Of a stretch of DNA of 32,000 bases, positions 8,325-32,000 are shown piece by piece; position 1 is the stretch's first letter, and the number at the start of each line of letters is the position of its first letter. The position numbers were made by a program, and so were the translations under genes. Origin of the DNA: Acaryochloris marina S15 (GTDB lineage: Bacteria; Cyanobacteriota; Cyanobacteriia; Thermosynechococcales; Thermosynechococcaceae). The DNA is taken from positions 5,550,001 to 5,582,000 of the forward strand of contig NZ_CP064923.1 of assembly GCF_018336915.1 (NCBI RefSeq), given 5' to 3'. The notes below the pieces were generated by a model. The model was not told the DNA's origin. It searched no databases and saw nothing but the letters and a program-made list of their open reading frames with translations.

Positions 8325-9548
8325 GTGTCCGATCAACTCCTGTATCAGATTCAGACGTTACAGTTTTCTGATCAGGCAGCGGCGAATGCCCTGCTGAAGG
8401 ACTTCGTCAATGACAATTTCCCTTTCAATGTGGAGCAGGTACAGGTACGTCCTTCGGCGGTATCCCTTAACTCCATTAATGGATTTCTGCATACCGTGGA
8501 AGGAGACAAACTGTTCTTCAAAACCCACGTTGAACCCCAAAGCCTGATTCATGAGTATTACAACTCCACGATCATGGCAGAGGCAGGCTATCCCATTATT
8601 CAGCCCATTTTTAGCTCAACAGAATGGGGTAAGCAGCTGCTGGTCTATGAGTTTTTTGAATCCCCATCTCTGTTTGATGTGGCTCGTCAGATTGAAACGG
8701 GACAGCGAGGCGGAGCTGACCAGATTATTGCCCTGCAGGAAAAAGCAGACCAAGACCTGTGGGCCATCTATCAGCAAACCCTGCAGCCTTTATCAGCCGA
8801 AGACCATGCCGAAGTCCCCATTCACCAACTGTTTGTCCATCGCCTAGTCGGAGGACGATATCACGAGTTTTACGCAGGCAAAGAAGTCAAGCTACCAGAA
8901 CACACCCTGAACTTTGACCCACTCGCTCAACTAACCTGGCAGATTAATGGCATACCTTACCAAGACACCCTAGCTGACATTATTCAAACAGCCAGTCAAA
9001 AGCTTGTCCCAACCTCTACTCCCTCTGTTGTCGGTCATGGTGATGCTCATAATGGCAATGTGTTCGTAGATGAAGACGCAGAAACCCTGATCTATTTTGA
9101 TCCTGCCTTTGCCGGACGGCATTCACCCTTTTTAGATCTAACGAAGCCGATCTTCCATAACGTATTTGCGATTTGGCTGTATTTCCCCCAAGAGATCGCC
9201 AAAGACCTATCCATTAACTTAGAGATCTCAGCAGACCAGATCCAAGTGGATCATGATTTTCGACCATCAGCTATACGTCTAAGATTCCTGCAATCAAAGC
9301 TCATGCATGTACTCCAGCCCTTGCTTGAGCGCCTAAAAGCTTCTGGTCAACTCCCTGAAACCTGGCGACAGGAACTCAAGTTGGCACTGTTTTGCTGTCC
9401 TTTTTTAACCATGAACCTCTGCGATACCCAACGCTTTCCGCCAGAAATTACGCTACTGGGCTTATCCCTAGCAGTAGAAATGGGCAGTTCTAGCACCTCC
9501 CAGAACCAGAGCATTTTAGATACTGCCCTGGACCAACTCAACATATAA
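8325..9548 (+). CDS. APH/choline-kinase-like phosphotransferase family protein
   Basis: Catalytic-loop motif HGDAHNGNVF followed by IYFDPAF (a DFG-like D). The track ORF starts at 8208 inside hisD. The GTG at 8325 is in frame, follows a GGAGGG Shine-Dalgarno at 8314-8319, and lies 19 nt after the hisD stop. Confidence 0.75.
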   Translation: MSDQLLYQIQTLQFSDQAAANALLKDFVNDNFPFNVEQVQVRPSAVSLNSINGFLHTVEGDKLFFKTHVEPQSLIHEYYNSTIMAEAGYPIIQPIFSSTEWGKQLLVYEFFESPSLFDVARQIETGQRGGADQIIALQEKADQDLWAIYQQTLQPLSAEDHAEVPIHQLFVHRLVGGRYHEFYAGKEVKLPEHTLNFDPLAQLTWQINGIPYQDTLADIIQTASQKLVPTSTPSVVGHGDAHNGNVFVDEDAETLIYFDPAFAGRHSPFLDLTKPIFHNVFAIWLYFPQEIAKDLSINLEISADQIQVDHDFRPSAIRLRFLQSKLMHVLQPLLERLKASGQLPETWRQELKLALFCCPFLTMNLCDTQRFPPEITLLGLSLAVEMGSSSTSQNQSILDTALDQLNI

Positions 9549-9592: not shown

Positions 9593-10150
9593 ATGCCGAA
9601 GTTTCCCAAGTTGCAGTGTAAGCGCGGCATTCTACGAATGGCAACAGAAGATGATATTGATGCCATCCTGAGGTATTTCATCGTTAATCAAGACCATTTA
9701 GCCCCCTTTGAGCCGATTAAACCGGTGGAGTTTTATACACCCAACTTTTGGCGGGTATTGATTCGCGATCGCACCCATGCATTCCTCAACGATCAAGGCA
9801 TCAAGTTCTTCCTGTTTGATCGGCACAATCCCCAGCAGATTATTGCGGCTATCAACTTCTCAAATGTAGTGCGAGGGGCATTTCAGTCCTGCACCTTAGG
9901 CTTTAGTATTGCCGACCAATATCAAGGTCAAGGCTATATGGCCGAGTCGATACCTGTTGCGATCGCATACCTCTTCTCTGACCTCAACTTGCACCGGATT
10001 ATGGCAGCCTATATGCCCCATAACCAACGTAGCGGCAGACTCCTCCGACGATTAGGCTTTCAACTGGAAGGATATGCCCCTAGATACCTCTGCATTAACG
10101 GGATATGGCAAGACCATATGCTCACTAGCCTCATCAACACTAATATTTAG
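9593..10150 (+). CDS. GNAT family N-acetyltransferase (RimJ/RimL-like)
   Basis: QGQGYMAES acetyl-CoA-binding-type motif, a RLGFQLEG tail and a length of 185 aa. Confidence 0.8.
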   Translation: MPKFPKLQCKRGILRMATEDDIDAILRYFIVNQDHLAPFEPIKPVEFYTPNFWRVLIRDRTHAFLNDQGIKFFLFDRHNPQQIIAAINFSNVVRGAFQSCTLGFSIADQYQGQGYMAESIPVAIAYLFSDLNLHRIMAAYMPHNQRSGRLLRRLGFQLEGYAPRYLCINGIWQDHMLTSLINTNI

Positions 10151-10230
10151 ATTTTATTTAGATCCGGCAGTCACCAAACCGAAAAGGACGTGGGCACAAT
10201 AAAGGTAGCTATTGTCATGGAAGTTCGACG

Positions 10231-10253
10231 GGGGGCGCAAGCCCCTTTTTTTT
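10231..10253 (+). terminator. Rho-independent terminator downstream of the GNAT gene
   Basis: GGGGC-GCAA-GCCCC hairpin (GNRA-type tetraloop) followed by eight T residues (10246-10253). Confidence 0.75.
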
Positions 10254-10288
10254 ATAGAATTAGACCATAAACACAACTGAAAATCTTG

Positions 10289-10357
10289 TGAAGTTATTTT
10301 GAAGCGTCAAGCTCTCTACAACAAATTTTATTCTTTTGAAAGTTCAAAATAACTTCA
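10289..10357. repeat. 15-bp perfect inverted repeat (TGAAGTTATTTTGAA / TTCAAAATAACTTCA) with a 39-nt spacer
   Basis: The arms lie at 10289-10303 and 10343-10357 in an AT-rich intergenic region. AAAATCTTG recurs nearby at 10280 and 10393. Confidence 0.6.
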
Positions 10358-10561
10358 ACTATCTCTCACGTAATTGAGATATTAGCCTTCACAAAATCTT
10401 GAGATTTTTCCTATCGTTTTGCTACACATGCGATAGAAACTACAGTTAGAAACCTTGGGATCTTTATCCTCAAAGTTTTAAACAATAATTATTTAATATT
10501 TACTACAGAAAAGATGTCTGTTTCCATAAGAAATGGGGCATTATCTAATCAATTAGTCTCC

Positions 10562-10592
10562 AAATAAAAACCCAGCACGGGGGGTGCTGGGT
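10562..10592 (-). terminator. Rho-independent terminator on the minus strand
   Basis: Perfect 9-bp stem ACCCAGCAC / GTGCTGGGT (10570-10578 / 10584-10592) with a 5-nt G loop. On the minus strand it is followed by TTTTTATTT (complement of 10562-10570). Confidence 0.6.
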
Positions 10593-10610
10593 CGATATGG
10601 GAGGTATTGG

Positions 10611-10652
10611 AACCCTCTGGATGAGTGAATGCATCGCATCCGAGGGTTTTTT
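10611..10652 (+). terminator. Rho-independent terminator on the plus strand
   Basis: Stem AACCCTC(T)GGATG ... CATCCGAGGGTT (10611-10623 / 10637-10648) has 12 bp with one bulge and runs into TTTTTT (10647-10652). Confidence 0.6.
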
Positions 10653-10928
10653 ATGGCATGAATTAACTAGTTGTTTATACTCTAACCAATCTTCCAAACC
10701 CAGACCTGAGAAGAACTACGGAATTATTATTTCTGTTACCAAAAAACCTCCAGTAAATACACCCACATTTACTTTCGCTCTATCGAATAGAAGTCATAAC
10801 AGCCATAACAGAAACGGAACTTTAGACAGAAATTTATAATATTCACAACAACTTCATAGGGCAATAAGTGCACGCCCCTCCTGATACGCTGAAATGAATC
10901 CATTCAAAGTTTTTATGGCAGAGCAGAT

Positions 10929-12356
10929 ATGGAAACGCAAACCGATTCCAATCCGAGCAACTTAGATATTCAATTCAATTTTTGGCAACAGTGGTATCCA
11001 GTCGCTCCCTTAGAAGACTTAGATCCACAGCGCCCCACTGCCATTACGTTATTAGGGCAACATTTTGTTATTTGGCAACCCAAGCATTCTGACCAATATC
11101 TAGTATTTCAAGATCTGTGCTCCCACCGCTTAGCTCCCCTCAGTGAAGGTCGCATTGACGAGCAAACCGGTCAGCTCATGTGTAGCTATCACGGTTGGCA
11201 ATTTGATCAAGAAGGTCTTTGCACCCACATTCCTCAAGCTGAAGCAGTCACCCCTAAGCAGGGACAGCTGTACTGCGTTACTGCTGTCCCCACTCAAGCG
11301 CAAAGTGGACTGTTGTGGGTATGGCCAGATCCAGACACCCGAGAAATTGCTGCCACACAACCTTTGCCTCTCTCCCCCCTCATTAATGCTGACCAAAACT
11401 TTGTCTGGTCCTCTGTCATGAGAGATTTGGCCTATGATTGGCAAACGTTAGTTGAAAACGTCTCTGACCCGAGTCACGTTCCCTTTGCCCATCATGGTGT
11501 CCAAGGCAATCGCAACCAAGCCGCTCCTATCCCTATGGAGGTTCTGACCTCCACCCCAGAGCTAATTGAAGTCTTGACCACGGGGAAGTTCGCCACCACA
11601 ATCACCTTTCAACCGCCCTGCCGCTTGGAATATCAATTTTCTATCGGTGAAGGGAAACAAGCAGCTATGGTCACCTACTGTATTCCCATTGCCCCAGGTC
11701 GATCTCGCATCGTAGCCCTGTTTGCACGCAATTTTGCCACAGGTCTCATGAAAGTGCTTCCTCGCTGGGTAGAGCATATGAAAAACCGCAATCCAGTGCT
11801 GGATGGCGACATGATTTTGTTACGTGCCCAAGAAAAACAGCTTCTTCAGCACACCCAAACCCAAAATTGGCAAACCGCCTACAAGCTCCCCACCAGTGCG
11901 GATCGTCTCGTGATTGAATATCGGCGATGGTTCGAAAAGTATAGTCACGGACAAATTCCTTGGGGATCTGCTGATGGGCAGATTTTCGTTGCTTCCAACA
12001 ACTATGACTATTTACAACCTCTAGGAGAGAAGCGACCTCAAATTCTGGATCGATATCATCAACACACCTTGATCTGTAGTAGCTGTCGACGAGCGTTGAG
12101 CAGAATCAAGCTATTGCAAAAGATTTTGGTAGCTGTCTTTGCGATCGCAATCAGTGGAACAGCAATCTTGCCTGATTCTTTACTCCCTTCCCGCCATAAG
12201 ATTGTGCATCTAAATATCATTGAAATTCTTATTTATCAAGAATCTGAATACCCAATCTTATGCTGGGATGGGAGTAAGAGTGACGTGGGGGATTCCCATG
12301 GTTCTCATAGGGCTTCTAGGGTTAGGGATCTATTATGGGTTGAAATATTGGCTTAA
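10929..12356 (+). CDS. PaO/Tic55-type Rieske [2Fe-2S] non-haem-iron oxygenase; the 3' end appears frame-disrupted
   Basis: Rieske motif CSHRLAPLSEG...CSYHGWQF, mononuclear iron region DPSHVPFAHHG and the PaO-family C-terminal CxxC (CSSCRRAL). After residue ~418 the translation becomes atypical (HKIVHLNIIEILIYQESEYPILCWDG...), while the +1 frame carries a TM helix and a ...KYWLKPRFYFVDYIHAHH tail. Confidence 0.85.
   Translation: METQTDSNPSNLDIQFNFWQQWYPVAPLEDLDPQRPTAITLLGQHFVIWQPKHSDQYLVFQDLCSHRLAPLSEGRIDEQTGQLMCSYHGWQFDQEGLCTHIPQAEAVTPKQGQLYCVTAVPTQAQSGLLWVWPDPDTREIAATQPLPLSPLINADQNFVWSSVMRDLAYDWQTLVENVSDPSHVPFAHHGVQGNRNQAAPIPMEVLTSTPELIEVLTTGKFATTITFQPPCRLEYQFSIGEGKQAAMVTYCIPIAPGRSRIVALFARNFATGLMKVLPRWVEHMKNRNPVLDGDMILLRAQEKQLLQHTQTQNWQTAYKLPTSADRLVIEYRRWFEKYSHGQIPWGSADGQIFVASNNYDYLQPLGEKRPQILDRYHQHTLICSSCRRALSRIKLLQKILVAVFAIAISGTAILPDSLLPSRHKIVHLNIIEILIYQESEYPILCWDGSKSDVGDSHGSHRASRVRDLLWVEILA
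12183..12274. repeat. AT-rich palindromic (MITE-like) element inside the 3' end of the Rieske gene
   Basis: Imperfect 22-nt inverted repeats: CTCCCTTCCCGCCATAAGATTG (12183-12204) against the reverse complement of 12253-12274 (CTCCCATCCCAGCATAAGATTG). They match 19/22, including a perfect 10-mer CATAAGATTG. An inner ATTCTT/AAGAAT pair is also present. The exact boundaries are uncertain. Confidence 0.55.
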
Positions 12357-12399
12357 ACCCAGATTTTATTTTGTGGATTATATCCATGCACATCACTGA
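12214..12399 (+). other. Displaced native C-terminal coding segment of the Rieske/PaO gene (+1 frame relative to 10929)
   Basis: Open frame reading ...AGMGVRVTWGIPMVLIGLLGLGIYYGLKYWLKPRFYFVDYIHAHH* (TGA at 12397-12399). It encodes a hydrophobic helix plus an aromatic tail, as expected for membrane-anchored PaO-family proteins. Confidence 0.6.
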
Positions 12400-13024
12400 T
12401 CAATCGATTTTTAGATAAAAGCCTTGGAAACACTCTGTCCATAAGTGTTTTCAAAGCTATTTTGTACAACGTTACACCAACCGTTAGAGTTCAGTGAACG
12501 ATAGAACCTGCCTACCCGTGAACTGAATTCCATCGACCTAACAACCAAAAGATACAGGTTTATGGCCAAGAGTTATTACCACAAAAAGTTTTACAAGATA
12601 AGAACCTTTATAGTTATTTCATTGATTCATATTAATTTATATGAAATATTACCGATTTCTTCGTGCAGATTTAATTTGGTAGTCTATTGACAACCAAATC
12701 TTCCAAAACTGGGTCTATTGTAACTTCCACAACATTTATGAGGAAGAAATTTCAGCCCTTTCATAAATATATTCTTTAGATTAAAATCTTGACTAAAATG
12801 CAGAGTATTGCGAATGAGATCGCACGATCAGCTCAGCTGCCATAACGGGGATCAAATTCTTACAATCTTTACAAGGAAAAGCTTACAAGGATTATTATCG
12901 GTATTACAATTTATATGTAAAGAACTGTATTGAGTCCTAGCTATGTAAACCATGAGTATTAAGTATTTTTTCTTAGCCTGTTTGAGCTGAGTGGAAGGAT
13001 ATACTTCTAGAACAGAAACGCTTG

Positions 13025-22147: not shown

Positions 22148-22220
22148 TCCAGGGTGCAGGAGTTGAACCTGCCTAGGGCGAATTATGAGTTCGCTGCCTC
22201 AACCGCTCGGCCAACCCTGG
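22148..22220 (-). tRNA. tRNA with anticodon CAU (elongator Met, or Ile2 if lysidine-modified), 73 nt, no encoded CCA
   Basis: Hand-folded from the reverse complement: acceptor CCAGGGT/ACCCTGG (7 bp), D-arm GCCG-AGCGGTTG-AGGC, anticodon arm GCGAA-CTCATAA-TTCGC, 5-nt variable loop CCTAG, T-arm GCAGG-TTCAACT-CCTGC, discriminator A. It is not initiator-like: it has a 1-72 pair and no GGG/CCC in the anticodon stem. Confidence 0.85.
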
Positions 22221-25847: not shown

Positions 25848-26216
25848 GAGGTATCCAAGGTTGTGACTAATCATTCCCATTCTCAGTTTAGTCATCCACT
25901 GGCTGAGTACACACATCTTTACCAAATAAAATCGAACCTTTGGCACTTTTGTCTTCATTTCCCTCGGTATCAGAGATTGAGACGGATCTCATACATTTTT
26001 CCGTACCCTAGCCAGTGATTTACCTCACAACTATCTATCTTCTAATCTTGTAATCTGCTAGATAATTTCCACAACAGCACTCACTCAATTCGATGTGGAA
26101 TCAATAGCGACCAGACAATGGTCAGTCAGAAGATCTCAGCATTTTCTCTCAAGCTAATTAATCAGCGTTTAGCAACTCTCAGAAAACATTTATAAGGGGA
26201 TTTAGGTGGGGGGCCT

Positions 26217-26879
26217 ATGAAACTTAAAAATCAGCAGATGCTACCGCTCGACGAGCAACTCCGTCAACTGGTCATAGAAGCCCGCCAATATCCCTCAGGC
26301 CATTTGAAACGAAAGCAATGTTTGACGCAGATTGTGCGACTGATTGAACAATCTCGTAAGCTCTGGCATGAACATACTCCTTACTATGAAGATGCCCTGC
26401 AGCAAACCTGGGTTTATTTTTGCCAAAATATTTGTGAAGCCGGTACTGGCGAACAATATGATCCCGACCGTAGTAGTGTCGTTACCTGGTTAAACCGATA
26501 TCTGAAATGGCGCTTACAAGACTTTCGCATTAACAAACAAAAGCACCTCGCAAGATATACCTCTAAAGCTCCTAGCGCCATCAACAAAAACCAAGACGTC
26601 ACGGATAATCTCGCTGCTCCTCCAGATACTCCCCCAATTTTGGAAACAACCCGTCATTGGGTGGAAACCGACCCCTCAGGTGAGTTAAGAAACGTTCATA
26701 TTCAAAACCGACCGGATGTCACCTGCCAAGTTTTACTATTAAGGCGTCTGCCACCGGAGCAAGGATGGGAAAAGGTTTCTGAAGAATTTGGCTTACCCAT
26801 TTCTACCCTGAGTAGTTTTTACCAACGACAATGTATGACCCGCTTGCGTAATTTTGGTCTGTCACAAGGATATCTATAA
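26217..26879 (+). CDS. Sigma-70-family-like protein (divergent region 2 + region 4 HTH)
   Basis: The region-2-like segment is YEDALQQTWVYFCQNI...SSVVTWLNRYLKWRLQDF. The region-4-like HTH is WEKVSEEFGLPISTLSSFYQRQCMTRLRNF. It is the first gene of a four-gene co-oriented cluster. Confidence 0.7.
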   Translation: MKLKNQQMLPLDEQLRQLVIEARQYPSGHLKRKQCLTQIVRLIEQSRKLWHEHTPYYEDALQQTWVYFCQNICEAGTGEQYDPDRSSVVTWLNRYLKWRLQDFRINKQKHLARYTSKAPSAINKNQDVTDNLAAPPDTPPILETTRHWVETDPSGELRNVHIQNRPDVTCQVLLLRRLPPEQGWEKVSEEFGLPISTLSSFYQRQCMTRLRNFGLSQGYL

Positions 26880-26902
26880 TAGAAGTTCCTGATTTTGACT
26901 CC

Positions 26903-27874
26903 ATGCTTCCCTTGATGAGCGATTCTTTAGCCTTACCCATTACCCTAACCGCGAGGCAAATAGCCCAAGGCTTTGGGCAACAGCAATCCACACCTGAGAA
27001 ATGCCAGCAAGTCTATCTCAACACCCTAGCGGTCCTTGCTGTTAAAGAGTATCTGGCATTGATGGAAATCCCCTGCAATCTGGAAGCTAGCGATAGCTGG
27101 AATCCAGTAGTGCGACTCTGTGCAGACGTTGCCGATCTCCTCATTCCGGGTATGGGCAGTTTAGAATGTCGCCCAATTTTACCTGGCACGCCTACCTGTC
27201 TCTTGCCCCCTGAAGTCTGGTCGGATCGCGTCGGTTATTTAGTTGTCGTCATTGATGATCAACAGCGGAGGGCTCGCATCCTAGGATTTACGCCCACTGC
27301 TCAAGCCGGTCAAATCGCCATAGAGCACTTACAACCCCTCGAATCCCTATTGGCTCATATTAGTGAATTCATGTTGGTAGACACCAAACCACCAACATTC
27401 GTTCAAACTGATCTGGGTCAATGGCTACAAGGTATCTTTAATCAAAGTTGGCAAGTAGTTGAAGACCTATTACAACCCTCAACCCGAGAGCCAGCATTTC
27501 ACTTTAGAAGTGCAGCCACAACGTCAACCGTTGAGCTAGATGACGATGCCGTTCAAATTAAGCGGGCCAAATTAGTCAAATTCAAAAATGATGCAGAAGA
27601 AATTCCCCTCGTCTTGATCATGAATCTTCTGCAAACTGAAACATATAGCCAGCGGATGCTCTGTGTTCAGCTCCGACCCGCAGGTCAATGCACATCATTA
27701 CCCGCTAATTTAGTGCTTAGGGTGCTGGACAACCAGCACAATACATTTTTAGAAGCCCAATCACGACAAGCGGACAACTACTTACAGCTTGAGTTCAGCG
27801 GATTACCAGGAGAACAGTTCCATCTCGATCTAGAGCAAGGCAACCACATCCTAACTGAAACATTTATTATTTAG
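26903..27874 (+). CDS. DUF1822 family protein (cyanobacteria-restricted, function unknown)
   Basis: The N-terminal LPITLTARQIAQGFGQQQSTPEKCQQVYLNTLAVLAVKEYLALMEIP is the characteristic DUF1822 opening. It starts 23 nt after the sigma-like gene. Confidence 0.75.
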   Translation: MLPLMSDSLALPITLTARQIAQGFGQQQSTPEKCQQVYLNTLAVLAVKEYLALMEIPCNLEASDSWNPVVRLCADVADLLIPGMGSLECRPILPGTPTCLLPPEVWSDRVGYLVVVIDDQQRRARILGFTPTAQAGQIAIEHLQPLESLLAHISEFMLVDTKPPTFVQTDLGQWLQGIFNQSWQVVEDLLQPSTREPAFHFRSAATTSTVELDDDAVQIKRAKLVKFKNDAEEIPLVLIMNLLQTETYSQRMLCVQLRPAGQCTSLPANLVLRVLDNQHNTFLEAQSRQADNYLQLEFSGLPGEQFHLDLEQGNHILTETFII

Positions 27875-27928
27875 AAATTTTTGCCCTGGCTGCATAGAAA
27901 GGAGATGCCTCTATAAAGAGAACAAGCC

Positions 27929-30900
27929 GTGGATAAATTAGTCGTATTGCGCATGGGAGAAGGTAGCTTTACACAGGGTTTTCCTGTGACCCTTCAAGTT
28001 GGCAAAGAAAACGACAGACCCTCGACTGAAATTGTTGGTTTTCTTCCTCCCAATCCTAATATTCCTCAGTATTATCAAGGGTGGCAAACGGCTTATCTCA
28101 ACTTGGGACTAACCACCCGTTTAGATGCTCCCACAGAACAATTAACCAACATCGATTGGCAAGAACTCCAAATCAACTGCGAACAGGCAGCCCACACACT
28201 TCATCATGCATTAGATCAATGGCTTCTAGCAGACCCCTTTCGACCTGTTCGGGATAAATGGCTGGAGCAACTTTCTCTACAAGATCACATCCGGATTATT
28301 TTGCAAACGGATAATCCGCAACTGCAGCGCTTACCCTGGCATCAGTGGGAACTTTTAACACGCTACCCCTTTGCCGAACTGGTCTTGAGTGCTCCAACCT
28401 ATGAAGGCATTCAGCGCCAATCTAGCTCCACTGCTGGCATCAAGATTCTTGCCATTTTGGGGAGTAGCCAAGGCATCAATACTCAAGCAGATCACGGGTT
28501 ACTGAATCAGCTTCCTAACGCAAATGTGACGTTTCTGGTAGAACCACAGCGGCAAGAACTCACCGATCAGCTATGGGATCAAAACTGGGATATTTTATTT
28601 TTCGCAGGCCATAGCCATAGCTCTAATCCCTGTGACACAGGCCATATTTGCCTCAATGCTCATGAAACACTGAATATCAATCAGCTGAAGTATGCTCTGC
28701 AGCAAGCCATTAGCAAAGGGTTACAGCTTGCTATTTTCAACTCTTGTGACGGTTTAGGACTCGCCCATCAACTGGCTGACATCCATCTGCCAGCCATGGT
28801 GATCATGCGCGAACCCATTCCTGATCAAGTAGCCCAATATTTTCTCAAGTACTTCTTAACTGCTTTTTCCAAAGGCAAACCTTTTCATTTAGCCGTCCGC
28901 GAAGCTCGGGAACGACTCCATGATCTTGAGCCTCATTTTCCATGTGCCACGTGGCTGCCGATTATTTGCCAAAATCCAGCCGAGATTCCACCCACATGGC
29001 AAAAGCTGAGTAAAAGTGATGGAGACGACTATTCTTTATGGCGCCATGACAATGACTCAGCAGCTCAAATCGTCACGATTGTCTTCACCGATTTAGTCAG
29101 CTCTACTGCCATTAAACAGGCTATGCCTGGCCTGGATGTCACAACCCGTAACCACCAGTATTACGACACAATTCTCCAACCCCACCGCCAACGCGTCACA
29201 GCTAGCTTAACGGCCTTTGGCGGTCGCTTGGTCAAAACAGAAGGGGATGGCTTTCTTATAAGCTTTCCAGGTGCCATGCAGGCTGCACAATGGTCCATCG
29301 CCCTGCAACAGCACCATGAACAAGATCCGATTACGACACCGTTTGGCCCCTTACAAGTCAGAATCGGTATGCATACAGGCAGCCCCTTATTGAAGGCTGA
29401 AGATCATGACTACATTGGCCAAGAAGTAGACTATGCCTATCGCATTTCTGACTTAGCTGATGGTGGACAAATCCTACTGTCAGAAGTCTCAGCCGTGTTG
29501 CTGCGCAATGCAGGCCTAACGGATATTACGGTGTATGACCATGACCATTGCTCCCTCAAAGGAATCGGCTGTGTACCTGTTTTCGAAATTCTCTGGGACA
29601 ATCGGCAACCCCGTCCGGTGCGAGATACACCATCCACGGTCTCGAATTCTCGCCATCAAGACCGACAGTCACCGGAAGTAGAACAAACTTTGCCAACTGC
29701 TGTGGCACCAATTGTTGCGGAACTGCCTCTAGAAAAAGTATCTCTCTTTTCTAAAGTTCACCGTTTTTGTCGCCGTCCTCTTTTATCCGCCTTGCCTACC
29801 AGTCTATGTTTGACAGCTGCCATTATTGGCATTCGAGGGCTAGGCATTCTACAGCCCATAGAGTTTTGGGCATTTGATCAGCTCCTGCGCCTCAGACCAA
29901 ATGAAGGTCCCGATCCCAGGCTATTAATTGTATTGGTCACGGATAAAGATATTCAGGCCCAAGGGGATCAGACGAAGCGGAGTTCTTTAAATGATCCAAC
30001 CCTGACTCGACTCCTGACTCAGTTAAACAAGGCTAAACCCCAGGCCATCGGCTTAGACATTTACAGAGATTTTACCGTTGATCCGAACTACCCCCAACTC
30101 GCGACCCAACTCAAGAACAATGAGCGCTTAGTAGTTCCCTGTAAAGGGAGTGATTCATCCAGTAATACAGATGGCATCGCGCCTCCAACTGAAGTACAAG
30201 CACCCAATCGCATCGGTTTTACAGATTTTATCGAAGATGGAGATGGGGTGTTACGCCGACATATCCTTCATATGAACCATGAGCCTGCCTCTCCCTGTCA
30301 AGCGTCTTTCTCCTTCGGTTCTCTGTTAGCCTTCCATTACTTGGAACAGCAGTCACCCCAGACATTTTCCCTCAAGTTTGCTGAACCCGAAGGCCACCCC
30401 TTGGAGTTGCAGGTTCAAACGGATCAACCTGGTACCGGAACAACACGAACCACAATCTTTAAACAACTACAGCCCCATGGCGGCTATCAAGGGATTAACG
30501 ATGACCGCATGAGAGGCTTGCAATTAATGCTAAATTATCGAGCCTTAAAGAGACCGACAGACATTGCCAAAACGGTAACTTTGGAGCAAGTACTGGCGGG
30601 ACAAGTTAATGCCAATGCGATTAAAGACAAGGTTGTTTTAGTGGGAGTCCAAGCGAGTGGATCTGGAGATTTTTGGTCTACTCCCTACGGTGCTGGCCCC
30701 ACTCAGAAGGTGGCAGGTGTTTTTGTGCAGGCTCATATGGCCAGTCAGATCATCAGTGCCGTTGAAGATCAACGTTCCTGCTTCAAAATATGGCCTCAAT
30801 GGGCTGATGGTCTTTGGATCTGGGGCTGGGCAATGATGGGCGGCATCGTTGCTATTGTCTTCAAACTCACAACTCGCACCGGTGTGATCAGCACTGTTTT

Positions 30901-31051
30901 AGTGAGTGGATTGTTCAGCCTCTGTTTATGGGGCCTGATACAGGCCATCTGGATGCCGCTCATACCGTCCCTGATAGCTTTTGTCATCACGACCGTTGCG
31001 GTGCTGTTAGTGCGCACCAAAAAAATTGATCATGATCATCCAGCTTCTTAA
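27929..31051 (+). CDS. Multidomain membrane protein: N-terminal CHAT (caspase-like) protease domain, class III nucleotide cyclase domain, TM helix, CHASE2 sensor domain, three C-terminal TM helices
   Basis: GTG start. CHAT core spans ~aa 170-350 with the His/Cys dyad FFAGH(228)SH (28610-28612) and IFNSC(273)DG (28745-28747). The cyclase spans ~aa 381-556 (VTIVFTDLVSST, VKTEGDGFLISF, VRIGMHTG, GQEVDYAYRISDLADGGQILLS). TM1 is aa 617-640. CHASE2 spans ~aa 641-955 (LRLRPNEGPDPRLLIVLVTDKDI, AIGLDIYRD, GFTDFIEDGDGVLRR, VVLVGVQA). The C-terminal TM helices are aa 958-1028. Confidence 0.8.
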   Translation: MDKLVVLRMGEGSFTQGFPVTLQVGKENDRPSTEIVGFLPPNPNIPQYYQGWQTAYLNLGLTTRLDAPTEQLTNIDWQELQINCEQAAHTLHHALDQWLLADPFRPVRDKWLEQLSLQDHIRIILQTDNPQLQRLPWHQWELLTRYPFAELVLSAPTYEGIQRQSSSTAGIKILAILGSSQGINTQADHGLLNQLPNANVTFLVEPQRQELTDQLWDQNWDILFFAGHSHSSNPCDTGHICLNAHETLNINQLKYALQQAISKGLQLAIFNSCDGLGLAHQLADIHLPAMVIMREPIPDQVAQYFLKYFLTAFSKGKPFHLAVREARERLHDLEPHFPCATWLPIICQNPAEIPPTWQKLSKSDGDDYSLWRHDNDSAAQIVTIVFTDLVSSTAIKQAMPGLDVTTRNHQYYDTILQPHRQRVTASLTAFGGRLVKTEGDGFLISFPGAMQAAQWSIALQQHHEQDPITTPFGPLQVRIGMHTGSPLLKAEDHDYIGQEVDYAYRISDLADGGQILLSEVSAVLLRNAGLTDITVYDHDHCSLKGIGCVPVFEILWDNRQPRPVRDTPSTVSNSRHQDRQSPEVEQTLPTAVAPIVAELPLEKVSLFSKVHRFCRRPLLSALPTSLCLTAAIIGIRGLGILQPIEFWAFDQLLRLRPNEGPDPRLLIVLVTDKDIQAQGDQTKRSSLNDPTLTRLLTQLNKAKPQAIGLDIYRDFTVDPNYPQLATQLKNNERLVVPCKGSDSSSNTDGIAPPTEVQAPNRIGFTDFIEDGDGVLRRHILHMNHEPASPCQASFSFGSLLAFHYLEQQSPQTFSLKFAEPEGHPLELQVQTDQPGTGTTRTTIFKQLQPHGGYQGINDDRMRGLQLMLNYRALKRPTDIAKTVTLEQVLAGQVNANAIKDKVVLVGVQASGSGDFWSTPYGAGPTQKVAGVFVQAHMASQIISAVEDQRSCFKIWPQWADGLWIWGWAMMGGIVAIVFKLTTRTGVISTVLVSGLFSLCLWGLIQAIWMPLIPSLIAFVITTVAVLLVRTKKIDHDHPAS

Positions 31052-31082
31052 ATCCTCATCCCCAGTAAAGGAGATTTCGTTT

Positions 31083-31931
31083 ATGCTGACTGCCCAACCT
31101 TTTTCTCGATCAATGCTGCTAACCTTAGCAGTTTGTACCATGGCAAGTGCAGGACTTTCTGGGCGCACACCCCATGTAATGGCCATGCATCAGCACCACC
31201 ATCTGACCTTTACCATGCCAACTCCCCCCAGCGACCCCGGCGCCCCGACCGGTCGGCGTGAAGGTGGAAGCAGTCGTGGCGATAAAATTTACACTTTATG
31301 TAAGACGGAAGCAGAAGCAGCCAACAAACAATGTGCAACGTCCCGATTAACCGCTCTAGTACCTGAAATTGATGCAGAAAAACAGATCTGGGGGCTGACA
31401 ACAGCTGATCACCCGGAATTCCTCTTCTACTTATCGAAGTTCAGAACCCCAGAACAACCCCAAACCACACGCCTGAACATTGAATTCGTCTTGCAAGACG
31501 AGAACGATCAATACGTCCACAAAACCCGTTTTGCTTTACCGTTGACGGAAGGTGGCATCATTCGTATTCCTATTCCTGCAAACCGAGATCCTTTACAGGT
31601 GGGCAAGCGATATACCTGGACGCTTTTGACAAAATTCGGACCGAACGAGACCAATTATGTACACGGCAGAATCTACCGTGTACAGATGGACACCCAACGC
31701 CAGCAGCAATTGCCAACAGCTTCCCCCTTGAAGCGTTTGGAAATCTATTTGGAAGAAGGCTTATGGTTCGATGCAATTTCGATGTTGGTTGATTTAAAGC
31801 AAGATGCTCCCCAAGATCTAACGCTGATCTCAAAATGGAACAGTTTGTTAGACAATATCAATCTCAAAGAACTGGCCACTGAACCCATGCTGTCCTGTTG
31901 TACCCCTGAACCCCATTTATCCCTCAAATAA
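31083..31931 (+). CDS. DUF928 domain protein, secreted
   Basis: The ATG at 31083 is preceded by AAGGAG (31068-31073). It has a signal-peptide-like N-terminus MLTAQPFSRSMLLTLAVCTMASAG. The DUF928 hallmark PPSDPGAPTGRREGGSSRGD is followed by LTALVP...WGLTTADHPEFLFYL...EFVLQDEND...GKRYTW. The track start at 31026 overlaps the previous gene. Confidence 0.75.
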   Translation: MLTAQPFSRSMLLTLAVCTMASAGLSGRTPHVMAMHQHHHLTFTMPTPPSDPGAPTGRREGGSSRGDKIYTLCKTEAEAANKQCATSRLTALVPEIDAEKQIWGLTTADHPEFLFYLSKFRTPEQPQTTRLNIEFVLQDENDQYVHKTRFALPLTEGGIIRIPIPANRDPLQVGKRYTWTLLTKFGPNETNYVHGRIYRVQMDTQRQQQLPTASPLKRLEIYLEEGLWFDAISMLVDLKQDAPQDLTLISKWNSLLDNINLKELATEPMLSCCTPEPHLSLK

Positions 31932-32000
31932 TCAGGTCTTTGATGATGCCTGATTATGGCTGTTGATAAACCGTTAGGAATAAGACAGGGTTTGAGTCTT

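Follow-up and report, generated by a model that had tools for sequence, protein, structure and literature searches.

A conserved cyanobacterial four-gene module combines a predicted CHASE2-coupled CHAT protease with a putative ECF-like sigma factor and DUF1822 and DUF928 proteins

Introduction

Proteolysis can connect the outside of the bacterial cell to transcription: in the RseA-DegS-RseP and RsiW pathways, in the summary given in PMC10028731, an extracytoplasmic signal leads to proteolysis and then to release of a group 4 sigma factor. In type III-E CRISPR systems the CHAT protease Csx29 cleaves Csx30, a protein that inhibits a sigma factor of the extracytoplasmic function (ECF) type (PMC10028731, PMC9825189). 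Here we analyse a four-gene locus of the cyanobacterium Acaryochloris marina S15, which encodes a putative ECF-like sigma factor, a DUF1822 protein, a membrane protein with CHAT, cyclase and CHASE2 domains, and a DUF928 protein. The locus lies in a stretch of 32,000 nt (assembly GCF_018336915.1, contig NZ_CP064923.1, positions 5,550,001-5,582,000 of the forward strand), the whole of which we call the window.

The most pertinent precedent is computational only. Kaur, Iyer, Burroughs & Aravind (2021, eLife 10:e70394, PMC8195603) described proteins that consist of EACC2, a caspase domain and a variable C-terminus, with CHASE2 named among the variants, and noted that genes for an ECF sigma factor and for DUF1822 adjoin the EACC2-caspase genes. 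They proposed that a stimulus activates the autopeptidase, which leads to sigma-driven transcription. In the source data of that work NCBI 'DUF1822 family proteins' are labelled TRADD-N+TPRs, Fischerella proteins homologous to the receptor studied here are labelled EACC2+CASPASE+CHASE2, and the present type of operon is listed, with a DUF928-like fourth gene and a TPR-CHAT gene. Both the class and a mechanism for it had thus been proposed, contrary to an earlier sequence-only reading of the window, which knew of no described mechanism for this combination of genes. Receptor cyclases and kinases with CHASE2 sensors are a known class as well (Zhulin et al. 2003, as cited in PMC8195603). Our literature search found no experimental work on the EACC2-caspase/sigma/DUF1822 class.

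The A. marina locus belongs to this neighbourhood class of EACC2-caspase, ECF-like sigma and DUF1822 genes, as a CHASE2 variant into which a cyclase has been inserted. Below we describe its conservation and its proteins, and weigh the ways in which it might work.

Results

The four open reading frames (ORFs) all lie on the plus strand, separated by 23, 54 and 31 nt (Table 1). This operon-like arrangement, reported by the sequence-only reading, reappears at the same coordinates in independent gene calls on public contigs that carry an identical sigma-like protein. Profile hidden Markov model (HMM) searches likewise bore out the DUF1822, CHAT, Guanylate_cyc, CHASE2 and DUF928 domain calls of that reading, all above gathering cut-offs; its sigma-factor call fell below the cut-offs and is supported by family members and by fold instead.

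The four-gene set is a real, conserved signalling module, known so far from computation alone. Relatives of the sigma-like protein were sought in one genome per GTDB species, which gave 584 loci, and the best 80 of the 584, all cyanobacterial, were censused with HMMs built from the window's own domains. Fifty-six of these loci extend 6 kb or more downstream; in 38 of the 56, distributed over many orders, DUF1822, CHAT, CHASE2 and DUF928 genes all follow in this order on the strand of the sigma gene. As to the rest, three lack DUF928 only, three have DUF1822 alone, one has CHAT without CHASE2, and eleven have none of these within 10 kb; altogether DUF1822 lies downstream of the sigma gene in 45 of the 56. 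A second, independent census, anchored on DUF928 in metagenome contigs, yielded 41 assessable loci, and in 38 of these DUF928 lies directly downstream of a CHASE2 gene (33 EACC2-CHAT-CHASE2 fusions and 5 CHASE2 genes without CHAT). The co-occurrence across cyanobacteria, which the sequence-only reading had suggested checking, is seen from both anchors.

The pairing of the sigma and DUF1822 genes is robust and involves more than one sigma subfamily, because where the sigma HMM is silent the gene upstream of DUF1822 encodes a protein of 400-580 residues with a Sigma70_r4 domain above the Pfam cut-off. DUF1822 genes also adjoin other CHAT variants (loci L167 and L169). None of the four EACC2-CHAT variants without CHASE2 has a DUF928 neighbour, and two of the four keep DUF1822. 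Sigma and DUF1822 thus go with EACC2-CHAT, and DUF928 goes with CHASE2. In one metagenome contig (L151:2-8615) two sigma/DUF1822/CHAT-CHASE2 modules stand back to back. Another contig (ENA ERZ5540422, L167) carries on one strand genes for DUF1822, CHAT, two pentapeptide-repeat proteins, TIR-CHAT, CHAT-PsbP_2 and COP23, with a second DUF1822 gene further along.

The eleven loci with none of the downstream genes, and several others, are Nostocales with an expanded cluster. Genes on the same strand for a ShlB/FhaC-type transporter, an exoprotein with a two-partner secretion (TPS) domain and a TPR-CHAT protein of about 900 residues are inserted there between sigma and DUF1822 or follow the sigma gene (L067, L070, L078, L083, L050, L063, L065, L075). 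ShlB, TPS or TPR-CHAT genes adjoin 22 of the 80 sigma-anchored loci and lie near about 25 of the 41 DUF928-anchored ones. At L149, L162 and L165 DUF928 adjoins TPR-CHAT and TPS genes even without CHASE2. A 1,640-residue ORF on the minus strand of another locus (L076:3133-8052) fuses a TPS secretion domain to TPR-CHAT, indicating that TPR-CHAT proteins can be cargo of two-partner secretion.

The third gene of the module encodes the putative receptor. In this protein and 26 homologues CHAT is preceded by a conserved module of about 65 residues, which we equate with EACC2 by its position and by the labels that Kaur et al. (PMC8195603) gave to the homologous Fischerella proteins, because no public EACC2 model is available. 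The CHAT domain carries the predicted His/Cys dyad of a caspase-like clan CD protease, and the residues that the sequence-only reading had singled out, H228 and C273, are invariant in the 26 homologues. Full-coverage homologues of residues 2-350 end in CHASE2, PsbP_2, DUF8082, Macro, TIR, pentapeptide, TPR or NB-ARC domains, and the EACC2-CHAT family comprises more than 1,000 protein clusters at 90% identity. The EACC2-CHAT alignment had no meaningful match among PDB profiles, and the only named NCBIfam CHAT match was NF045509 (HetF; E=1.6e-7 over residues 193-328). Hydropathy analysis supported the membrane topology proposed earlier: transmembrane (TM) helices at about 617-644 and within 962-1028 place CHAT and the cyclase in the cytoplasm and CHASE2, which has one TM helix before it and three after it and scores above its cut-off, in the periplasm. 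In Cyanobacteriota bacterium JS3 (L005/L030), an assembly from MinION reads only, the gene calls assign CHAT and CHASE2 to separate, overlapping genes, a division that is probably a frameshift artefact and not a true split.

Between CHAT and the first TM helix the window protein has a class III nucleotidyl cyclase domain; among solved structures the active adenylyl cyclase Ma1120 is its nearest relative (E=2e-12). The two metal-binding Asp residues are present, as are the Lys/Asp specificity pair and the Arg. Where the canonical Asn would stand there is an Asp, invariant among cyclase-bearing homologues; in Ma1120 the position is Ala. In the two censuses the domain is limited to loci L006-L010 and L016, which are from close Acaryochloris relatives, and to L126 on one metagenome contig. 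No other locus of either census has it, that of Acaryochloris sp. CRU_2_0 (L011) included, and 33 of the 38 complete four-gene loci are without it. This distribution marks the predicted cyclase as a lineage-specific insertion, a secondary addition to a protease-bearing receptor. Outside Acaryochloridaceae the only such variant is that of L126 (L126:1928-4858), whose gene lies after a ShlB gene. Its substrate-specifying Lys is replaced by Glu, a guanylyl-cyclase-like feature.

Of all the assignments, that of the sigma factor is the least secure. The window protein matches TIGR02937 with E=0.014 and 15 bits (cut-off 42.9) and has no match to the Pfam domains Sigma70_r2 and Sigma70_r4, thus scoring below the curated ECF sequence models. 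Within its family, 8 of 26 members match TIGR02937 (best E=8e-6) and 3 of 26 match ECF SigK; the family comprises 1,147 clusters at 90% identity, NCBI names its members sigma-70 family proteins, and the window protein matches A. marina MBIC11017 at 96%. Searched against PDB, the family profile has its best match in RpoE/SigE (E=0.16), aligned at regions 2 and 4. The AlphaFold2 (AF2) model (predicted local distance difference test, pLDDT, 79.7) consists of two helical domains joined by a disordered linker, and Foldseek ranked ECF sigma factors on top: E. coli sigmaE (1or7_A, probability 0.98), M. tuberculosis SigH and SigL, AlgU, and the sigma2 domain of SigC (TM-score 0.69, root-mean-square deviation 3.7), all with modest E-values of 0.02 or higher. 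The model thus has the two-domain build of an ECF sigma factor, that is, sigma2 and sigma4 with a flexible linker and neither sigma1.1 nor sigma3, and hydropathy gave no TM segment. From this modelled fold we conclude that the protein, although it fails the sequence thresholds, is a putative divergent ECF-like sigma factor. Three cysteines, C69, C73 and C206 (in FCQNICE and YQRQC), are invariant in the 26 family members, which is unusual among sigma factors; they may mark a redox or metal site. When this short family was compared, profile to profile, with the longer sigma proteins that Pfam recognises, only region 4 aligned, and weakly (probability 4%).

The DUF1822 protein, 100% identical to a public A. 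marina S15 protein, has no TM segment by hydropathy. Its AF2 model (pLDDT 85.1) shows an N-terminal alpha/beta domain (residues 9-160) and a C-terminal beta-sandwich (218-322), and repeats are absent. Sequence-profile and Foldseek searches of PDB returned generic beta-sandwich matches and no specific relative. Between the two domains lies a disordered loop (residues 194-212) with, near its start, R202, which is 97% conserved over 149 DUF1822 representatives sharing at most 50% identity, while the neighbouring positions vary and accept insertions. Split matches and HEAT inserts of the family map to this loop, and the helical repeats of longer DUF1822 members are such HEAT/Arm inserts. This pattern suggests that the modelled loop with R202 is a candidate cleavage or docking site. 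At L127 and L139 the DUF1822 ORFs are about 490-510 residues long, with a HEAT/Arm insert at the position of the loop, and are preceded by a gene for a 407-residue protein with Sigma70_r4, not of the 220-residue sigma-like type. Long DUF1822 ORFs were also considered as fusions of sigma to DUF1822, and proved to be carriers of HEAT/Arm inserts. The TRADD-N assignment of DUF1822 by Kaur et al. (PMC8195603) is not reproduced here: hhalign against human TRADD-N gave a probability of 0.2%, and no TRADD entry was among the top 50 Foldseek matches of the whole-protein model.

The DUF928 protein scores 161.6 bits against a cut-off of 26. Translation probably starts at the ATG at 31083, behind an AAGGAG sequence; the public contigs use this start too, and the longest ORF opens with TTG at 31026. 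A hydrophobic, signal-peptide-like segment at residues 11-25, in agreement with the sequence-only reading, predicts by hydropathy that the protein is secreted or periplasmic. Its linkage to CHASE2 supports a role as a putative partner of that sensor.

Table 1. Features of the locus and its borders (positions in the window)
Feature	Position	Strand	Basis or detail
Presumed promoter and 5' leader, divergent intergenic region	25959-26216		258 nt from longest upstream ORF
Putative ECF-like sigma-70-family protein, divergent, 220 aa	26217-26879	+	Weak TIGR02937 match, AF2 fold
Sigma2-like domain (aa 11-115), disordered linker (116-133), sigma4-like helix-turn-helix domain (140-217)	within 26217-26879	+
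DUF1822 protein, soluble, 323 aa	26903-27874	+	Pfam PF08852, E=6e-68
Disordered, insertion-prone loop of DUF1822, aa 194-212	27482-27538	+	pLDDT <50; R202 codon 27506-27508
EACC2-like + CHAT + class III cyclase + TM + CHASE2 + 3 TM protein, 1040 aa, GTG start	27929-31051	+	Pfam
Conserved N-terminal module, aa 1-~67, equated with EACC2	27929-28129	+	G12, G17, F18, P40, W52, Y56 invariant
CHAT caspase-like protease domain, aa 68-334	28130-28930	+	PF12770, E=2e-14, 53.9 bits (cut-off 24)
Predicted catalytic His228 (FFAGHS) and Cys273 (FNSCDGLG)	28610-28612; 28745-28747	+	Both invariant in 26 homologues, many orders
Class III nucleotidyl cyclase domain, aa 380-545, between CHAT and TM1	29066-29563	+	PF00211 (Guanylate_cyc), E=3e-9
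TM helix 1, aa ~617-644, cytoplasm to periplasm	29777-29860	+	Hydropathy scan
CHASE2 extracytoplasmic sensor, Pfam envelope aa 629-973	29813-30847	+	PF05226, E=5e-62, 210 bits (cut-off 26.3)
Three C-terminal TM helices, aa ~962-1028, then short basic cytoplasmic tail	30812-31012	+	Hydropathy scan
DUF928 protein, 282 aa, predicted secreted or periplasmic	31083-31931	+	PF06051, E=2e-47
Convergent DUF1835 gene, 3' end; downstream boundary, outside the system	31974-32000	-	PF08874, E=4e-11, extended contigs L001-L004

The divergent intergenic region measures 258 nt, as had been stated from the sequence, when counted to the longest upstream ORF; public gene calls start the divergent thioredoxin-like gene later and would make it 369 nt. 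Two blocks upstream of the sigma-like gene are conserved in the Acaryochloris clade. The one at about 26014-26070 (AGTGATTTACCTCACA...TCTTGTAATCTGC.AGATAAT) may serve either flanking gene, and the other, at 26190-26216, is a leader (AAGGGGAnnTAGGTGGGTGGCCT) directly before the ATG. A sigma-70 consensus scan of the upstream region gave no convincing site and fewer sites than in shuffles. Upstream of 68 non-redundant sigma genes, enrichment of k-mers and dyads pointed just to HIP1 repeats and a Nostocales-restricted motif, with no family-wide dyad, and we claim no ECF-type promoter. The Nostocales motif, TATTCTTGCT, found at -26/-46 from the sigma-like start codon in close relatives only (L048-L082), could be a leader element or merely shared ancestry; its restriction to these relatives is explained by relatedness.

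On the downstream side, the plus-strand ORF at 31956, in which the sequence-only reading saw a possible continuation of the cluster, closes within fewer than 40 codons on the extended contig, and the space is occupied by the convergent DUF1835 gene, 431 residues long in full. The flanking genes (CTP synthase, ROK, YgbB, CNNM, PSRP-3, thioredoxin-like, DUF1835 and helicase) read as housekeeping, and there is no mobile-element or defence-island context around the Acaryochloris copy. Judged by the neighbouring genes, the locus has neither a Cas7-11/gRAMP effector nor a CRISPR array, and Rfam gave no CRISPR-related RNA family, the single family found in the window being tRNA. Neither the window nor the 10 kb that follow it downstream contained a TPS arm or a second copy of the system, and none of the four proteins matched a PADLOC-DB 2.0 defence model at E<=0.01. 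Elsewhere in the window, ARAGORN and Rfam alike found a tRNA-Met at 22148-22220 (minus strand), and ARAGORN a 92-nt tRNA-Gly(GCC) at 8880-8971 (minus strand) that Rfam does not report at gathering score. GC content is low at 10001-11000 (0.387) and 12001-13000 (0.366), against a window background of about 0.47.

Discussion

The explanation that we prefer, tentatively and with somewhat less than even confidence, is a receptor-fused CHAT protease that acts through DUF1822 on the ECF-like sigma factor. The data show the structure of the genes, the domains, catalytic residues and topology, the conserved synteny and a sigma-like fold; the contacts between proteins, the substrate, the cue and the regulon, and the way in which regulation runs, are all inferred. 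CHASE2 in the periplasm and the secreted DUF928 protein, as a co-receptor or ligand carrier, would detect an extracytoplasmic cue, and the transmembrane signal would activate the cytoplasmic CHAT protease, probably via induced dimerisation. Dimerisation would also bring together the active sites of the cyclase, so that Acaryochloris would have a cyclic nucleotide (cNMP) as a second output. The protease would then act on the soluble DUF1822 protein, which may hold or deliver the sigma factor, or on itself, and in DUF1822 the candidate cleavage site would be the disordered loop with the near-invariant Arg202. The freed sigma factor would steer RNA polymerase to a regulon of which its own operon and any neighbouring TPS/TPR-CHAT genes are probably part. 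The scheme is credible as a way of working because of the Craspase precedent, in which Csx29 cleaves an inhibitor of an ECF sigma factor; by analogy, DUF1822 is plausible as a cleavable, Csx30-like anti-sigma protein.

Several observations count against this scheme. Sequence and fold searches of PDB showed no likeness of DUF1822 to Csx30 or to a known anti-sigma domain, and no sigma-DUF1822 fusion was found among 150 representatives. The conserved R202 could serve in binding and not as P1, and large insertions are tolerated in the loop. The sigma call falls below every curated sequence threshold, and the 68 non-redundant upstream regions of sigma genes yielded no conserved ECF-type promoter. 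The A. marina region is without the TPS/TPR-CHAT arm and hence offers no candidate regulon from it. Kaur et al. (PMC8195603) favour autoproteolysis over cleavage of DUF1822.

Their proposal for the class (PMC8195603) is the alternative that survives best. It describes an autoproteolytic effector-associated constant component conflict system, in which sensing at the C-terminus leads to self-cleavage by CHAT and to release or activation of the EACC2/cytoplasmic module, DUF1822 (as TRADD-N) is an adaptor or switch and not a substrate, and the sigma factor drives immune or programmed-cell-death transcription. A constant EACC2-CHAT part with very variable C-termini, TIR, Macro and NB-ARC included, is typical of conflict systems, as are paralogue arrays, and the class is enriched in multicellular cyanobacteria. 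The Acaryochloris copy, however, sits among housekeeping genes, away from mobile elements and defence islands, and matches no PADLOC defence model; moreover, the TRADD-N assignment was not reproduced and no cleavage site is known. On balance we find this proposal doubtful for the present locus.

The module could also regulate two-partner secretion as a surface-signalling device with FecIR-type ECF logic. CHASE2 and DUF928 would monitor the status or products of the ShlB/TPS/TPR-CHAT exoproteins and tune their expression, with CHAT proteolysis as one of several possible transduction steps. The frequency with which the secretion genes adjoin both sets of loci speaks for this view, as do their position inside the operon in Nostocales, the DUF928 genes that stand beside TPR-CHAT and TPS without CHASE2, and the L076 fusion of TPS to TPR-CHAT. 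Yet many loci lack the arm, the A. marina locus among them (10 kb downstream and the window upstream), and no promoter motif is shared. We consider such a role improbable as the explanation in its own right, and it is compatible with the receptor-protease scheme, not exclusive of it.

That the protein is mainly a CHASE2-regulated adenylyl or guanylyl cyclase receptor with a cNMP output, CHAT being a non-catalytic scaffold and the neighbours functionally independent, seems very improbable: the catalytic core of the cyclase is conserved and under selection, and receptors that pair CHASE2 with a cyclase form a class already known (Zhulin et al. 2003, as cited in PMC8195603), but the four-gene synteny holds in the many complete loci without a cyclase, and the CHAT dyad is invariant. 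That unrelated genes lie together by chance and the sigma factor was mis-called, a reading to which only the sub-threshold sigma score lends anything, is effectively refuted by the gene order conserved in two independently anchored censuses and by the fold evidence for the sigma factor.

A wider version of the receptor-protease scheme would make it a CRISPR-independent, cyanobacteria-wide pathway, running from a CHASE2 and DUF928 receptor through the fused CHAT protease and cleavage of the DUF1822 Arg loop to sigma release. Such a pathway would activate sigma factors by a new route, would stand as the ancestor or the general case of the Craspase-Csx30-sigma logic, and would control two-partner-secreted CHAT exoproteins in cell-cell conflict or multicellularity. 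We think this full version unlikely.

The class is large: representative genomes have 584 sigma-like loci, and DUF1822 proteins form about 2,500 clusters at 50% identity. If the proposed link from protease to sigma factor is true, a caspase-like, receptor-fused protease joins the known routes of ECF sigma activation, two widespread families of proteins, DUF1822 and DUF928, gain functions, and the Craspase-Csx30-sigma logic exists outside CRISPR. The Acaryochloris copy is a convenient test case, being compact, free of the secretion arm, from a cultured organism and provided with the cyclase as a second readout, and the analysis gives experiments narrower targets, namely a loop where cleavage may occur, a cytoplasmic fragment with set limits and genes that may belong to the regulon. 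The locus is of moderate interest, mainly as a tractable way into a protease-sigma pathway that is widespread.

Among cyanobacterial CHAT proteases, HetF of Nostoc functions in heterocyst differentiation and cell division. The window protein shares with it the CHAT protease and a match to NF045509, but reaches 30 bits where the equivalog cut-off is 1200, and differs in architecture and gene context. With the CHASE2 receptor cyclases and kinases the locus has in common a TM-flanked CHASE2 coupled to a predicted class III cyclase, whereas its output domains lie N-terminal to the sensor and not C-terminal. It resembles RseA-DegS-RseP and RsiW in the proposed use of proteolysis between an outside signal and the release of a group 4 sigma factor; here, however, the candidate inhibitor is soluble, TM-free and without an anti-sigma fold, and the site-1/site-2 pair is replaced by a predicted cysteine protease of clan CD, cytoplasmic and fused to the sensor.

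Craspase (Cas7-11, TPR-CHAT Csx29, Csx30 and CASP-sigma/RpoE) also links a CHAT protease to an ECF-type sigma factor and a soluble partner. The window differs from it in having no CRISPR effector or array, EACC2 and not TPR before CHAT, a transmembrane CHASE2 input and no equivalent of Csx31; nor does DUF1822, by sequence or fold, match any solved chain specifically, as a Csx30-like substrate might. Membership in Craspase fails on every structural feature tested. The EACC2-caspase class, by comparison, shares with the window the N-terminal constant module directly before CHAT, the variable C-termini with their CHASE2 variant, and the adjacent ECF sigma and DUF1822 genes. The window copy departs from the published description by the cyclase between CHAT and the first TM helix, a string that does not occur in the files of Kaur et al. 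(PMC8195603), whose text and searchable supplements neither name DUF928 or its linkage to CHASE2 nor describe a TPS link to the module. They call DUF1822 TPR or TRADD-N, whereas the window member models as an alpha/beta domain and a beta-sandwich. The module has been known computationally since 2021, and to it the present analysis adds the cyclase insertion, the DUF928-CHASE2 linkage, the secretion arm and a model of DUF1822.

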